27,972 nt of DNA from an archaeon (GTDB taxonomy: Archaea > Nanobdellota > Nanobdellia > Pacearchaeales > GW2011-AR1), in contig JAZDPV010000005.1 of the NCBI GenBank assembly GCA_043797265.1, positions 1 to 27,972 on the forward strand. Reading direction: 5' to 3'. Both the position numbers and the translations under genes were made by a program. Below are positions 3,151 to 22,495 of the stretch, piece by piece. A model generated the notes under the pieces. The model was not told the origin of the DNA and made no database searches. It saw only the letters and a program-made list of their open reading frames with translations. How positions within the stretch are numbered: the first letter of the stretch is position 1; each line of letters begins with the position of its first letter.

Positions 3151-3542
3151 TAATTTAGGTAAACTATTCCGTTTTGTTTTGTGATTGTGTTCGTTCCTTT
3201 TGATATATTGCCTGTGATGTTTTTGATGTTGACTGCTATCGCGTGTTTTTGGTCGGTTGTTTTTGCGTAGACAATTCCTTCGAAGATTGAGATGTCGTAG
3301 TCGTCGTTGATTATTTTGTCCGGTATTTTGAATTCTCGTTTGTAGCCGTCGGTAGATTCTGTTGCCAAGTCGATTTCTTCCTGGACGGTTTTGACGATGT
3401 CTTTGATGATGATTGTTTTTTTCTCTTTGGATTTTTCCTGTATTTGACTTTGGATTATTCCTGTGAATATTATGAAGAAGAAAATCAGGAACCCCATTAT
3501 TATTATGAGTTCGACGGCGGCTTGGGCTTTTTTGTTTGGCAT
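3150..3542 (-). CDS. Pilin-like protein, class III signal peptide
   Basis: KKA|QAAVELIIIMG with E at +5, followed by a hydrophobic helix. Confidence 0.85.
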   Translation of the reverse strand: MPNKKAQAAVELIIIMGFLIFFFIIFTGIIQSQIQEKSKEKKTIIIKDIVKTVQEEIDLATESTDGYKREFKIPDKIINDDYDISIFEGIVYAKTTDQKHAIAVNIKNITGNISKGTNTITKQNGIVYLN

Positions 3543-3543
3543 T

Positions 3544-3957
3544 TTATGAGTTTATTGTTACGGTGCTGGAGGTTGCTTCGATTATTATGTTTCTTAGTCC
3601 GGAGACCGTCGAAAGAGTTCCTGTGATTGGGACGTTGCTTGGGAATGAAACTTTGTTCGTGCCGGAGGAGCATTGGAATGTTACGAAGAGGGTGTCGTCT
3701 GCGATGTTTATTTCCGAGATTCCTTCCGGGACGTAGCTTACGATTGTGATTTTTGATGGTTCGCCTGCGTAGAAAACGGATTCTGCGGAGGAGATGATTT
3801 TGTCGGACATACTTTCTATTTGTCTTGATAAAATCATGTCTCTGATTGTGTTGTTGTGGTACATTGCGATGCCGAGCGTGGTGATTAGAATGAAGGTTAG
3901 AAATCCTATAATCATAAGATATTCCATGCCGATTTGCGCATTTTTTTTGTGTATCAT
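3544..3957 (-). CDS. Pilin-like protein, class III signal peptide
   Basis: KNA|QIGMEYLMIIG, the typical archaeal 'AQxxxEY' prepilin motif. Confidence 0.85.
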   Translation of the reverse strand: MIHKKNAQIGMEYLMIIGFLTFILITTLGIAMYHNNTIRDMILSRQIESMSDKIISSAESVFYAGEPSKITIVSYVPEGISEINIADDTLFVTFQCSSGTNKVSFPSNVPITGTLSTVSGLRNIIIEATSSTVTINS

Positions 3958-19897: not shown

Positions 19898-19916
19898 ATA
19901 GATAATATTATAAATT
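19898..19916 (+). promoter_or_regulatory. TATA-type tRNA promoter, copy 1
   Basis: ATAGATAATATTATAAATT, identical to 20119-20137. Confidence 0.6.
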
Positions 19917-19988
19917 CGTTTTGGGTTTGAAAAGTAGAGCCCATAGTTTAAAGTAACGGCGAAGCCGTTTCATGAAAACTATGGGTAT

Positions 19989-20116
19989 GAGCCCATAGTT
20001 TAATGGATAGAACATCAGGTTTCGGCCCTGAAGATTGCTCGCAAAATGCATTTCGCAATCAAATTTATTTTTATTTTAGATTGCTCGAAGCGTTTTGCTC
20101 GGAGTTCGAGTCCCCC
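19989..20116 (+). pseudogene. Interrupted tRNA-Arg(UCG) copy: 5' 47 nt identical to the intact gene, hairpin insert, variant T-arm, no 3' acceptor strand
   Basis: 19989-20035 equals the first 47 nt of the tRNA; insert 20036-20100; GGAGTTCGAGTCCCCC at 20101-20116. Confidence 0.8.
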
Positions 20117-20118
20117 TT

Positions 20119-20137
20119 ATAGATAATATTATAAATT
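20119..20137 (+). promoter_or_regulatory. TATA-type tRNA promoter, copy 2
   Basis: 19-nt exact repeat of 19898-19916, at nearly the same spacing to the leader and tRNA. Confidence 0.6.
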
Positions 20138-20211
20138 ATCTTTCTTGAGAATATTTGTGAGCCCATAGTTTAAAGTAACATTAAAATGTTTCATGAAAAC
20201 TACGGACTTGT

Positions 20212-20283
20212 GAGCCCATAGTTTAATGGATAGAACATCAGGTTTCGGCCCTGAAGATGGGAGTTCGATTCTTCCTGGGCTCG
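20212..20283 (+). tRNA. tRNA-Arg (anticodon UCG), intact, no encoded CCA
   Basis: Cloverleaf GAGCCCA/TGGGCTC, D-arm GTTT/GAAC, anticodon arm TCAGG-TTTCGGC-CCTGA, T-arm GGGAG-TTCGATT-CTTCC. Confidence 0.95.
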
Positions 20284-20304
20284 TGTCGAACTCGTATTCA
20301 ATTT

Positions 20305-20394
20305 GATGGGAGTTCTGATTCGCAATTTGCATTTCGCGAAAATAATATTTTGAATAGTTTTCGCTCGAAGCGAATTGCTCACTTCCTGGGTTCG
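20305..20394 (+). repeat. Duplicated tRNA-Arg 3' end interrupted in the T-loop by a hairpin insert
   Basis: GATGGGAGTTC (20305-20315) ... CTTCCTGGGTTCG (20382-20394), flanking hairpin 20322-20378. Confidence 0.8.
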
Positions 20395-20414: not shown

Positions 20415-20966
20415 ATGAATAAAAAAAACAGAGAAGAAAGGGCAGAAAAATTTTTGCCGTTGATTCATTATATTTTGCGGGAGCATGGGATTAGAAGAGG
20501 GAATCCTTATAGAGATAATTATTTTGAAGCAGGACTTGTCGGATTAGCAAAAGCTTTGAATGGTTATGACGGGCGCGTAACTTTTTTGACTTACGCATAT
20601 AGTTGTATTGAGAATGAAGTTTTAAATGAGGCGGTGAAATATTGGAGAGGCAAAGAGAAGATGTGGAGGACTGTGAGAGGTTTGGATTGTTTTTTGTGGG
20701 GGATTGTTGCAGATGGGGGAGATAGTCCTTATGATAAGGTAGAGAGAGAGGAAGATATATCTTTATTGATGAGGCTTGTTGATGAGTTGCCTTCTCGGAG
20801 CAGAAAGATTATTAGGTTGCGTTGTGAGGGGATGACTTTTAATGAGATTGCTGAAGTTGTTGGCCGTGATTCCAAGAAAGTTGGAGGGCATGCTATCCAA
20901 TATTCTTATGCGAGGTCGTTGAAGAAGTTGAGGAGGATGTTTGAGAGAGAGGTTGGTGTCCATTAG
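20415..20966 (+). CDS. Bacterial-type sigma-70 family protein (regions 2 and 4)
   Basis: Region 2-like DNYFEAGLVGLAKALNGYD..TFLTYAYSCIENEV; region 4-like LPSRSRKIIRLRCEGMTFNEIAEVVG...RSLKKLR. Confidence 0.85.
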   Translation: MNKKNREERAEKFLPLIHYILREHGIRRGNPYRDNYFEAGLVGLAKALNGYDGRVTFLTYAYSCIENEVLNEAVKYWRGKEKMWRTVRGLDCFLWGIVADGGDSPYDKVEREEDISLLMRLVDELPSRSRKIIRLRCEGMTFNEIAEVVGRDSKKVGGHAIQYSYARSLKKLRRMFEREVGVH

Positions 20967-21748: not shown

Positions 21749-22495
21749 ATGAAGTTGGTTGATGTGCATGCGCATTTGGAGAGTTCGAAGTTTGATGGAG
21801 ATTTAGATGAGGTTATTAGGAGATTTGTCGACGCTGGCGGAAGGGTTGTAATTAATAGTGGGACTTCGCCCGAAAGAAATAGAGAGTGTTTGGAGTTGGC
21901 TCGGAGGTATGATTGCGTTCGGGCGAGTTTTGGTTTTTATCCTGTTGGGAATTTTTCTAAGGATGTTGATAAGGAGATTGAGTGGATTCGTGAGCGTTTG
22001 AGCGAGTGTGTTGCCGTCGGAGAAATTGGTTTGGATTTTGCCGAAGGTCGTGGCGATATGGAAAGACAAGTGAAATTATTTAAGAAGATGCTGGGTTTTG
22101 CGAAGGAGGTTGGCTTGCCGGTTGTGATTCATTCGAGGAAGGCGGAGGCGGAGGCGATTGAGATTTTGGAGGAGTTTGGGATGAAGAAGGTTGTGATGCA
22201 TTGTTTTTGCGGGCGTAAGAGTTTGATTAAGAGGTGTGTTGAGAATGGTTGGAGTTTTTCGGTGCCGCCGGCGATTATGAGATGGGATAATTTTAGGATG
22301 CTGGTTGAGAGCGTACCGATTGAGCAGTTGTTGACAGAGACAGATTCGCCGTATTTGTCGTCGGTGGCTGGTGAGAGAAATGAGCCGGTGAATGTTTTGG
22401 TTACTTTGAAGGAGATTGCGAGGATTAAGGGGTTGAGTGTTGAAGAAGTTAGTGAAAAGATTTGGGGGAATGCCGGGAGAATGTTTGGTTTCTAA
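21749..22495 (+). CDS. tatD: TatD family nuclease
   Basis: VDVHAHL, AVGEIGLD, PVVIHSR, VMHCF, LLTETDSPYL, RNEP. Confidence 0.95.
   Translation: MKLVDVHAHLESSKFDGDLDEVIRRFVDAGGRVVINSGTSPERNRECLELARRYDCVRASFGFYPVGNFSKDVDKEIEWIRERLSECVAVGEIGLDFAEGRGDMERQVKLFKKMLGFAKEVGLPVVIHSRKAEAEAIEILEEFGMKKVVMHCFCGRKSLIKRCVENGWSFSVPPAIMRWDNFRMLVESVPIEQLLTETDSPYLSSVAGERNEPVNVLVTLKEIARIKGLSVEEVSEKIWGNAGRMFGF

Follow-up and report, generated by a model that had tools for sequence, protein, structure and literature searches.

The window analyzed here, a stretch of 27,972 nucleotides, is one contig of the 625-kb genome of a Pacearchaeota-like DPANN archaeon with extreme GC skew. Between positions 19898 and 20394 it carries a single intact gene for tRNA-Arg(TCG), two copies of a leader hairpin (element B), two copies of a hairpin of about 60 nt (element A), a promoter-bearing pseudo-copy made of tRNA nt 1-47 and A, and a 3' fragment of the gene that is split by A. 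Direct copies of a gene end are called decoys below, and inverted copies are called anti-segments.

19898-19916, + strand: promoter-like 19-mer, copy 1, with a TATA-like TTATAAAT at 19908-19915; identical to 20119-20137; putative promoter
19937-19951, + strand: decoy of tRNA nt 1-15 (P), unit 1; repeat match, at the expected transcription start
19950-19974, + strand: B core hairpin 1, AAAGTAAC-GGC GAA GCC-GTTTCATG
19976-19985, + strand: anti-segment 1, inverted copy of tRNA nt 4-13, 10/10 complementary
19989-20035, + strand: 5' part of the pseudo-tRNA, tRNA-Arg nt 1-47, identical to the real gene
20036-20100, + strand: A copy 1, AAAAT/GTTTTG-arm subfamily, TG linker, inserted at tRNA position 47/48
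20101-20117, + strand: degenerate T-arm copy GGAGTTCGAGTCCCCCT, without the acceptor 3' strand
20119-20137, + strand: promoter-like 19-mer, copy 2, identical to copy 1
20159-20173, + strand: decoy of tRNA nt 1-15, unit 2; repeat match
20172-20195, + strand: B core hairpin 2, AAAGTAAC-ATT AA AAT-GTTTCATG
20197-20205, + strand: anti-segment 2, AAACTACGG, one mismatch to the present tRNA
20211-20284, + strand: intact tRNA-Arg, anticodon TCG (ARAGORN; Rfam RF00005, 65.4 bits)
20286-20293, + strand: inverted copy of the T-arm 5' half, TCGAACTC, complement of tRNA 20261-68
20305-20315, + strand: direct copy of variable loop and T-stem 5' strand, GATGGGAGTTC, an 11-nt left flank word
20316-20381, + strand: A copy 2, AATTT/GAATT-arm subfamily, inserted in the T-loop of the 3' fragment
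20382-20394, + strand: direct copy of T-stem 3' strand and acceptor 3' strand, CTTCCTGGGTTCG; repeat match

The initial annotation described a promoter-leader-tRNA unit of about 221 nt that occurs twice, and every string it quoted lies where it had placed it. The promoter-like 19-mer and the leader are indeed present twice, and the exact 19-mer has only these two copies in the whole 625-kb genome (19898 and 20119). The tRNA, however, is found in the second unit only, and the units are mosaics rather than simple tandem copies. The 20-nt spacer 3' of the promoter is unrelated between units, and that of copy 2 resembles the region upstream of the paralogous tRNA-Arg(GCG) (C2 21687; C2:21634-21686, 81%). 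The first 15 nt of the tRNA occur four times (19937, 19989, 20159, and 20212), and 48 nt are identical between 19988-20035 and 20211-20258. Unit 1 runs from tRNA nt 1-47 into a 63-nt hairpin element and then a degenerate T-arm, and it scores 25.7 bits as an Rfam tRNA (19989-20101), below the 29-bit cutoff. Its promoter and nt 1-47 are perfect despite the unrelated spacer. Rfam searches returned no family besides tRNA at gathering thresholds, and no plausible one at E values up to 10.

Each leader was said to begin with a copy of the tRNA 5' end and to end with its complement. This is so in both units, as in the inverted pair CCCATAGTTT/AAACTATGGG at 19940-49/19976-85, except for the single mismatch in anti-segment 2. 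The TATA-to-decoy spacing is 29 to 30 nt (29 nt from the first T of the TATA-like box to the G at 19937), the same as the spacing from TATA to tRNA position +1 in L004, a relative with a clean site. Thus, the decoy sits where transcription would be expected to start. On the 3' side, the anti-T-arm segment and decoy 3' copy it described are both present, but the hairpin that splits the decoy 3' copy (20319-20380), homologous to the one in unit 1, had been overlooked. The two A copies belong to different subfamilies, their arms are mutually complementary, and both match the sequence and covariance models of the family (copy 1, nhmmer 20038-20100, E = 1.2e-10, and 73.3 bits with covariance model R1; copy 2, nhmmer 20320-20380, E = 4.7e-16, and 73.9 bits with R1).

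Two families of hairpin elements

Element A is a non-coding, long imperfect hairpin of about 60 nt with conserved arms and a variable loop, and nhmmer found 21 copies in this genome. For 19 of them, an intact tRNA gene lies less than 400 nt away, and 8 nt or more of that gene are directly repeated in a 35-nt flank. The intact gene adjoins A in all 19 cases, and A is sense to the tRNA in 8 and antisense in 11. The remaining two copies were simply inserted, with no duplication: one interrupts another repeated structured sequence, and the other lies in the 16S rRNA gene, where 65 nt stand in place of the 8 in the archaeal small-subunit model. Insertions also occur in the D-loop and the variable region of tRNAs. 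A is a discrete unit, as near-identical copies are set in unrelated, target-derived flanks: A copy 2 is 98% identical over 65 nt to a copy at tRNA-Thr(CGT) (C12:79187-79251) that has Thr-derived flanks and the opposite orientation to its tRNA.

The A hairpin is 93.5% paired, and 10 of 18 pairs change on both sides, which none of 500 shuffles equaled. The covariation invoked by the initial annotation is therefore real, but it belongs to the element families and does not reflect co-evolution in place at this locus. On the G-rich strand, one T.G pair never varies. With regard to the hallmarks of a MITE (terminal inverted repeats, a target-site duplication of fixed length, and a related autonomous transposon), the A arms behave as inverted repeats and TC is found invariably at both ends. 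The flanking target copies vary in length from 8 to 25 nt, and the linkers are ragged (TG, TA, TAT, TAAT, and TTTTAT). Such ragged ends are unlike the product of a precise transposase and count against a mobile element.

Self-copies of at least 10 nt within 250 nt of the gene are found at 15 of the 31 tRNA genes genome-wide, and inspection of other tRNA genes here and in relatives indicated that the architecture is not unique to tRNA-Arg. An inverted T-arm piece also lies 3' of at least 10 other tRNAs, and the palindromic turn-arounds are sharp, with centers of 0 to 2 nt. At the Thr and Ile loci, the inverted pieces include uninterrupted T-loop sequence. We conclude that inverted pieces were copied from an uninterrupted gene.

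Element B is also non-coding and multicopy, with a core of about 24 nt: AAGTAAC, three variable base pairs, a loop, three base pairs, and GTTTCATG. It is found 5' of tRNAs and at the starts of protein genes, and 33 copies from relatives uphold the same order: gene 5' end, B core, imperfect inverted copy, filler, and real gene. In 16 of these 33, a sense tRNA lies 16 to 70 nt downstream, and all 16 tRNA-linked copies are sense to that tRNA, in a screen confined to sense neighbors. Where B lies at a protein gene, its inverted piece is complementary to the region around the start codon. Across the 33 copies, the inner helix is 97.5% paired with three covarying pairs, and the outer, target-derived helix formed by the anti-segments is 75.5% paired. 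The duplicated segment begins near the transcript 5' end; this start, together with the sense orientation, would be more readily accounted for by a process or function linked to RNA than by replication alone. Decoys mostly match their source exactly, while the anti-segment is mismatched at about 25 to 30% of positions; thus, one simple copying event is insufficient. The mismatches follow the T-ward strand bias of the genome. The genome carries a reverse transcriptase of a diversity-generating retroelement (DGR), and DGR-type adenine mutagenesis of the anti-segments was considered and rejected, as mismatch was not adenine specific (A, 0.22; C, 0.41; G, 0.33; T, 0.32).

Strand rule and distribution

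Twelve contigs, of both skew signs, carry A, and every one of the 21 copies is on the G-rich strand. GC skew is 0.3 to 0.5 on every contig, and none shows a switch of sign. Genes on either strand are skewed (0.47 and 0.23), and therefore the strand asymmetry is not an effect of gene orientation. We assume that the skew marks the direction of replication. In a second genus (G072), 20 of 22 A copies lie on one strand of their contigs, and of the 19 copies detected again, 12 lie no more than 300 nt from a tRNA, with both orientations represented.

Relatives differ at the same site. Among 11 with an orthologous tRNA-Arg(TCG) locus, five are clean, one has B only, two have A only, two have both, and the last has inverted and direct T-arm pieces without A. 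In L003 and L010, direct copies of the tRNA 3' end lie downstream, sometimes with 7 to 16 nt of trailer. Model R1 found A in 3 of 4 additional genomes of the genus. Of the 60 other genera of the family, 4 carry it by this model (1, 22, 19, and 8 copies), whereas 41 genomes from other families of the order gave no hit. The B core pattern was found in 23 of 41 genomes of the genus, with 63 matches against 1 for a reversed control. No viral contig matched the two-arm A pattern. Thus, A and B are patchily distributed within one clade of Pacearchaeota-like DPANN archaea. The suggestion that the locus bears the footprint of a tRNA-targeting element is supported by the multicopy nature of both families and by the same decoy and anti-segment grammar at many tRNA genes of this genome and its relatives, and it gains further backing from the empty tRNA-Arg site in 5 of 11 relatives.

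Origin of the locus

The best explanation of the locus, and in our judgment a probable one, is that a working tRNA-Arg(TCG) stands amid what at least four insertions, by members of two hairpin families, and one local duplication have left behind. More generally, we favor the view that these structures are the footprints of strand-specific mobile hairpin elements and of target-derived duplications that keep the gene intact. The two families and their grammar are observed, as are the strand rule, the differences between relatives, and the covariation of the hairpins, and all of these support this reading. A would enter stable-RNA genes and B the first 7 to 20 nt of transcripts, in each case on the G-rich strand only. 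Because a cell would not survive insertion into its only copy of a tRNA gene, only interrupted copies beside a regenerated intact gene end are seen. A 5' insertion would leave the old 5' end at the promoter as a decoy, followed by the element, an imperfect inverted anti-segment, filler, and a new complete gene; a 3' insertion would give the intact gene, an inverted T-arm piece, and a 3' fragment carrying the element. The strand rule may reflect entry into single-stranded DNA at the replication fork, where the G/T-rich strand would be long exposed. Direct and inverted target copies could stem from snap-back or template switching primed by a hairpin, or from selection among events of this kind, and RNase P and 3' processing would remove the extra leader and trailer.

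A Y1/RAYT transposase was considered as the mobilizer and rejected, as it showed neither co-occurrence with A nor linkage to it. Of 31 genomes of the genus, only 6 have Y1 genes. Outside the genus, Y1 was found in 19 of the 60 other genera of the family whether or not A was present (3 of 4 with A and 16 of 56 without), and the 1.5 kb around each of five Y1 genes held no A copy. The one Y1 copy in the present genome is truncated and lacks the catalytic Tyr motif. Searches of this genome for a TnpB-type domain (PF07282), and for a longer parent element with A-like ends or separated half-sites, were likewise negative.

Alternatively, the decoy, the anti-segment, and the real gene end might form a selected RNA device, as the initial annotation had proposed. 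The anti-segment would sequester either the decoy or the real end, the B or A hairpin would be a handle whose binding of a protein or ligand sets the balance, and the output would be control of tRNA maturation or start-codon access. Indeed, the predicted correct and decoy-invaded folds of the unit 2 precursor are nearly isoenergetic (-33.3 and -33.6 kcal/mol), and the hairpin cores are strongly conserved in structure. Moreover, the 16 tRNA-linked B copies in relatives are 5' proximal as well as sense, the decoy falls at the predicted transcription start, and the complementarity to start codons at protein genes would suit such a device. The orientation of A, however, tracks the DNA strand and not the gene (11 of 19 antisense), the sites are polymorphic among close relatives, and the anti-segments are imperfectly paired with mismatches that show the T-ward strand bias. 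The fold predicted without the decoy retains the cloverleaf, and thus no switch would be needed. Compensatory change in DNA hairpins can also arise without selection on RNA, by quasi-palindrome template switching. We consider a riboregulatory switch unlikely.

Integrase-mediated integration could leave similar traces if small integrative elements or decayed proviruses had generated att-type repeats of the tRNA 3' end, with A as a remnant by attR. The genome encodes three tyrosine recombinases, the direct downstream copies in L003 and L010 resemble att duplications, and tRNA fragments left by integration are common in archaea, according to one preprint (bioRxiv 10.1101/2022.07.05.498093). Only 60 to 90 nt lie between or inside the repeats, however, with no integrase gene or open reading frame there, and A mostly splits a copy rather than sitting between copies. 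Integration would not predict the inverted piece, and it fits poorly with events on the 5' side, with insertions in the D-loop and variable region, and with the simple 16S insertion. Finally, no further copy of the tRNA-Arg 3' end was found elsewhere in the window to serve as the distal repeat. Integration thus appears quite improbable as the source of the locus.

A still different possibility is that A is a bulge-helix-bulge (BHB) intron or that the tRNA is nascently split, such that the 5' piece (nt 1-47 and A1) and the 3' piece bearing A2 are joined by splicing endonuclease and RtcB. The host, an archaeon, has canonical tRNA introns and RtcB, and EndA is present in 26 of 31 genomes of the genus, with no match in the present genome, which is 83% complete. 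The perfect promoter and 5' part of unit 1 would also be accounted for. Four of the 21 A copies, all sense T-arm insertions, can form a BHB-like motif, but this is not an enrichment over the 1.85 expected with shuffled flanks, by a simple scanner that recovered all four canonical-intron controls. By inspection, the predicted cuts in the A2 copy of Arg and in Trp would leave a T-loop of 2 to 3 nt. Moreover, the 16S copy has no BHB motif, most tRNA-linked copies are antisense, and an intact gene always adjoins A. We regard splicing of either kind as very unlikely here.

Finally, the assembler might have chained or collapsed repeats at a repeat-rich locus of a metagenome-assembled genome, but the chance of such an artifact is negligible, as the key junctions are reproduced exactly in contigs from two other runs and the same grammar recurs at 19 other places in the genome and in dozens of independent assemblies. 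Contigs from four DNA runs cover parts of the stretch: a 151-nt contig of one run is identical to 19898-20048 and a 219-nt contig of a second run covers 19989-20110 without difference, although either run may depend on the source sample. A contig of run X2 joins a unit 2-type leader to a unit 1 body, which favors an artifact if it reflects graph ambiguity and otherwise points to population variants.

Related systems and significance

Our literature searches found no description of A or B, although tRNA tables in supplementary files may bear on this. Among the closest known systems are REP/REPIN sequences with their RAYTs and IS200/IS605-derived palindromic elements of bacteria and some archaea, which, like A, are non-coding hairpins of small size and imperfect pairing, have conserved arms around a variable loop, occur in tens of copies per genome, and are patchy between lineages. 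Strict strand polarity is as expected for such single-strand DNA transposition. The present elements differ in having no linkage to a Y1 transposase, in their ragged ends, in targeting tRNA and rRNA genes instead of extragenic space, and in the direct and inverted duplications derived from the target. Templated insertions by snap-back or template switching arise at DNA breaks and hairpins, in alternative end joining and quasi-palindrome mutagenesis. They too involve short local direct and inverted copies of the flanks around a junction, with sharp palindromic turn-arounds, whereas here the events go together with two conserved hairpin sequences and strike one type of target repeatedly across many genomes.

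Archaeal BHB introns have transposed between tRNA positions in the Thermoproteales. Like A, they are, at least in published outline, small related inserts at non-canonical positions in many different tRNA genes and also in rRNA; unlike them, half of the A copies are antisense and lie in pseudo-copies beside an intact gene, and excision would not restore the T-arm. Split and permuted tRNA genes of Nanoarchaeum equitans and Caldivirga share, in the main lines of their descriptions (PMC3218864 and PMC2237900), a DPANN-type host, pieces with their own promoters, and adjoining self-complementary sequence. Here, in contrast, every affected tRNA keeps an intact gene, and joining is not in evidence from DNA sequence. 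Fragments left by virus or plasmid integration resemble the locus, as far as the cited preprint outlines them (bioRxiv 10.1101/2022.07.05.498093), in the partial direct copies of the tRNA 3' end downstream, but here a 60-nt hairpin splits the copies, no element or integrase lies between them, and there are inverted pieces and 5'-side events as well.

About half of the tRNA genes of this genome are flanked by pieces of themselves, and automated tRNA calls in DPANN archaea may therefore mislead. A recent preprint describes tRNA-Val and tRNA-Trp as "missing" from many Pacearchaeales; to link this with A and B would be speculative. The strict strand rule, in a genome of extreme skew, suggests that one strand is unusually exposed while DNA is replicated and that hairpins drive genome change there. 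B, judged from its sequence, may be a mobile RNA-structure module for gene 5' ends that adds a structured leader with a decoy start. The clade, which is related to Nanoarchaeum, offers a natural series of clean sites, 5'-side events, 3'-side events, and whole-gene duplicates, and this series bears on the origin of fragmented tRNA genes. In its boldest form, the mobile-hairpin reading would make A and B new strand-locked archaeal elements whose entry is "self-healing," in that the gene end is re-synthesized from the target, so as to yield hairpin-tagged, promoter-bearing 5' pieces and 3' pieces of a tRNA in one step, their arms able to pair with one another, and with the leftover decoy and anti-segment pairs acting as RNA folding switches at tRNA and mRNA 5' ends. 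We offer this proposal tentatively and hold it to be a long shot. Were it true, the hairpin-tagged pieces would be raw material for the split, trans-spliced tRNA genes of Nanoarchaeota-type archaea.

The tRNA-Arg(TCG) locus

The genome (G000) amounts to 624,983 bp in 18 contigs, one of which (C5) is the window in its entirety, and the sole tRNA gene in the window is tRNA-Arg(TCG) (20211-20284 by ARAGORN; Rfam concurs, 65.4 bits). Around it lie direct copies of the gene ends (decoys), inverted copies complementary to them (anti-segments), and hairpins of two families, elements A and B. Every string named in the initial annotation was found in place, and the features are as follows.

19898 and 20119: identical copies of a 19-mer
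19937, 19989, 20159, and 20212: 15-mer of the tRNA 5' end
19976-85: inverted 10-mer
19988-20035: 48 bases identical to 20211-20258
20038-20100: A1, a 63-nt hairpin of element A, after tRNA nt 1-47 of the upstream copy and before a degenerate T-arm
20197-205: inverted 9-mer with one mismatch
20286-93: TCGAACTC
20305-15 and 20382-94: direct pieces of the tRNA 3' end
20319-20380: A2, a hairpin homologous to A1, splitting the T-loop of the downstream 3' copy

Two promoter-led units of about 221 nt were originally described. They do share an identical promoter 19-mer, leader flanks, and tRNA nt 1-47, but the upstream unit (unit 1) lacks a complete tRNA: its tRNA-like copy consists of nt 1-47, A1, and the degenerate T-arm and scores 25.7 bits against a 29-bit Rfam cutoff. 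Likewise, the proposed 3' decoy at 20305 exists as direct pieces, but its interruption by A2 had been overlooked. The two units are mosaic, differing altogether in their 20-nt spacer and in the inner stem of the leader, and the promoter and spacer of unit 2 resemble those of the paralogous tRNA-Arg(GCG), whose tRNA follows directly. In both units, a TATA-like box lies 29-30 nt before the G of the decoy, the same spacing that separates TATA from tRNA +1 at the clean site of a relative (L004). Thus, the decoy appears to be the former 5' end of the gene, still in place where transcription begins.

Exact matches to 19898-20048 and 19989-20110 occur in contigs of two other public runs, which are possibly not independent of the source sample. 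In a 219-nt contig of run X2, the unit 1 body (nt 1-47 plus A1) is preceded by a leader of the unit 2 type (inner stem ACATT), with the joint at window positions 20003/20183; this joint may be either a population variant or an assembly-graph path through the 48-nt repeat. Directly downstream of the locus, a 183-aa open reading frame (20415-20966, plus strand) matches Sigma70_r2 (25.4 bits; cutoff, 24) and Sigma70_r4_2 (29.5 bits; cutoff, 25.7) and, judged by these domains, encodes a putative ECF-like sigma factor of bacterial type, here in the genome of an archaeon. The sequence downstream of tRNA-Arg differs in L004.

Two hairpin families and their probable scars

Iterated nhmmer found 21 copies of element A in G000, all 21 on the G-rich strand of their own contig (10 on the plus strand of positive-skew contigs and 11 on the minus strand of negative-skew contigs). 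Nineteen lie less than 400 nt from an intact tRNA gene, 8 sense and 11 antisense to it, and each has, within a 35-nt flank, 8 nt or more copied directly from the gene. Across 18 copies from 15 or more genomes, 93.5% of the cells of the A structure are paired and 10 of 18 pairs have changes on both sides, values reached by none of 500 shuffles (slid controls, 34 to 51%). Because one T.G pair is invariant, the G-rich strand is the one that pairs best. Over 65 nt, A2 shares 98% identity with the A copy at tRNA-Thr(CGT), which has Thr-derived flanks and the opposite orientation to its tRNA; thus, A moves as a discrete unit. A1, with AAAAT/GTTTTG arms, belongs to a subfamily other than that of A2.

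The two remaining A copies are plain insertions without duplication. One is a 65-nt sense insertion in 16S rRNA (C14:142-200), where the archaeal SSU model has 8 nt (positions ~193-200), in the single 16S fragment of G000, which is cut by the contig end. No bulge-helix-bulge motif was found at this copy, and therefore element A may be retained in mature 16S rRNA. The other interrupts one copy of a third repeated sequence, ~110 nt long and structured, with long-range self-complementarity (GCAAATTAATTTTTCT ... GAAAAATTAATTTGC), which occurs at C17 ~3500-3620 and C14 ~21950-22180; its uninterrupted copy lies downstream of tRNA-Cys, and it has no Rfam match at gathering.

Element B is a leader hairpin with a core of AAGTAAC, 3 variable base pairs, a loop, 3 base pairs, and GTTTCATG. 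All nine copies in G000 are on the G-rich strand; five are upstream of tRNAs (Arg twice, Val twice, and Ser) and four are elsewhere, including a tandem pair where a protein gene starts. Of 41 genomes in the genus, 23 contain the exact pattern (63 matches, versus 1 for a reversed control). Inspection of other tRNA genes and of relatives, the check proposed in the initial annotation, shows that the architecture is not confined to tRNA-Arg: self-copies of at least 10 nt lie within 250 nt of 15 of the 31 tRNA genes in G000, and the B grammar is the same in 33 distinct copies from relatives. Among those 33, the surrounding 3 kb has positive skew in the B orientation at 28, and a sense tRNA, the only orientation screened, begins 16 to 70 nt downstream of 16, in eleven anticodon classes. 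Pairing reaches 97.5% in the inner helix, where three pairs covary, and 75.5% in the target-derived outer helix. Thus, the swapped yet paired inner stems of the window (19958-66 and 20180-87), described in the initial annotation as covariation, are two members of a variable family and do not reflect local coevolution. Other B copies of relatives lie at protein-gene starts, where a decoy ATG is followed by B and its inverted copy, and a Shine-Dalgarno-like filler then leads to the real ATG. The tandem pair of G000 (C18:78316-78401) likewise stands before a protein gene, and each of its two units has a decoy Shine-Dalgarno plus ATG (GGAGGTGGAAAATGACTAAAG) as well as a TAGTC piece in inverted orientation; this design recurs at several protein-gene starts in relatives (L082, L093, L095, L103, L105, and L108).

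In tRNA sense, events on the 3' side (for example, Arg, Thr twice, Met twice, Ile twice, Gly twice, Gln, Pro, and Asn) start with the intact tRNA and a short inverted copy of the T-arm 5' half; a direct copy of that half follows, then A, which may face either way, and finally the T-stem 3' and acceptor 3' strands. Their turnarounds are sharp palindromes with centers of 0 to 2 nt, and the inverted piece at the Thr and Ile loci holds uninterrupted T-loop sequence and was therefore copied from an intact gene. On the 5' side, the order is promoter, decoy, element, inverted piece, filler, and complete gene; examples are two tRNA-Leu genes with A in their D-loop and B throughout. Tandem whole-gene duplicates in which the upstream copy carries A were found for Trp, Pro, Cys, and Phe. 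The 3'-side unit of inverted T-arm, T-arm 5' half, A, and 3' end is present in two identical 107-nt copies downstream of tRNA-Met (C12:84514-84730) and in three copies, one with a variant A, downstream of tRNA-Ile (C9:1-560), repeats that look like local tandem amplification of scars.

Host, strand asymmetry, and distribution

The host is an archaeon: its 16S fragment matches the archaeal SSU model (259.7 bits), and an archaeal-type RNase P RNA on C7 scores 83.1 bits, slightly below the 84-bit cutoff. MAGs carrying element A are labeled Pacearchaeota, Woesearchaeota, or Nanoarchaeota. Strand asymmetry is extreme: absolute GC skew is 0.29 to 0.53 on each of the 18 contigs, T exceeds A on their G-rich strand, the sign changes within none of them, and the skew holds for genes of both strands (0.47 and 0.23).

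Among 11 relatives, the orthologous tRNA-Arg(TCG) locus is clean in five, including L004, which has the upstream permease gene in common with the window; it carries B only in one, A only in two, A and B in two, and inverted and direct T-arm pieces without A in one. One of the two A-only relatives has its tRNA on the C-rich strand, with A antisense. Searches with a covariance model detected A in 3 of 4 additional genomes from the genus, in 4 of the family's 60 other genera (1, 22, 19, and 8 copies), and in 0 of 41 genomes from other families of the order. In the 22-copy genome (G072), 20 copies share a single strand of their contigs; nhmmer redetected 19 of the 21 examined (one low-scoring hit was omitted), and 12 of those 19 lie within 300 nt of a tRNA, with both orientations represented.

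Origin of the locus

The strand rule, the antisense half of A copies, site polymorphism, and near-identical copies at unrelated tRNAs argue for a DNA-level mobile element, support the original suggestion of a tRNA-targeting element, and argue against an RNA device specific to the locus. A folding switch would nonetheless be thermodynamically possible at unit 2. The intact tRNA is predicted to fold as a cloverleaf (-24.0 kcal/mol), and in the predicted minimum of leader plus tRNA (-33.6 kcal/mol), the acceptor 3' strand of the real tRNA is paired to the decoy, at an energy close to that of the correct fold of leader hairpin and cloverleaf (-33.3 kcal/mol); the cloverleaf is retained in the predicted fold without the decoy.

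Element A could instead be a spliced intron. Canonical tRNA introns exist in G000, RtcB is present, and a tRNA-splicing endonuclease domain occurs in 26 of 31 genomes of the genus, though none was found in the G000 assembly, which is 83% complete. A simple bulge-helix-bulge scanner recovered four canonical-intron controls and, among the 21 A copies, detected a motif at the element ends in 4, versus 1.85 expected with shuffled flanks; the predicted cuts would leave a T-loop of 2 to 3 nt. We therefore do not class A as a bulge-helix-bulge intron. A tRNA at C18:72264-72371 with a ~32-nt insert in the anticodon loop, called Trp(CCA) by ARAGORN with introns allowed, reads by eye as Gly(TCC) with a canonical-position intron.

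As to candidate mobilizers, a Y1 (IS200/RAYT-type) transposase is encoded by 6 of 31 genomes in the genus and by 19 of the family's 60 other genera (3 of 4 A positive and 16 of 56 A negative), and the 1.5 kb around each of five Y1 genes contains no A. The only Y1 copy in G000 is N-truncated, with RKF in place of the expected catalytic SYF. This degenerate 103-aa frame (in C18:85459-88794) adjoins a Cys-rich HNH-like frame on the opposite strand, just downstream of a tyrosine recombinase gene (C18:84904-85377), and the region may be a decayed mobile island. G000 has three tyrosine recombinases; neither a TnpB-type domain nor separated A half-sites were found in it, and A had no match in viral contigs. 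A diversity-generating retroelement (DGR) on C3:8619-12257 (L123) has its reverse transcriptase frame at L123 1291-2310 and its template repeat at 1182-1268, and the variable repeat (833-919) occupies the 3' end of a frame of 278 aa; the 87-nt repeats are 83% identical and, by inspection, differ at template adenines. Mutagenesis of anti-segments by the DGR is rejected, as their mismatch rates (A, 0.22; C, 0.41; G, 0.33; T, 0.32) are not adenine specific, and the mismatches are biased toward T, the genome's own strand bias.

The portions of literature searched held no account of either element. Several features are not accounted for: the sense, 5'-proximal placement of all 16 tRNA-linked B copies of relatives, the exact decoy versus the sloppy anti-copy, and the ragged element ends. 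On balance, we consider it probable that two hairpin insertion elements, locked to one strand and conserved in structure, left these footprints, together with duplications of target sequence that keep one gene intact. The hairpins may enter single-stranded DNA exposed at replication, and snap-back or template-switch synthesis may make the decoy and inverted pieces.
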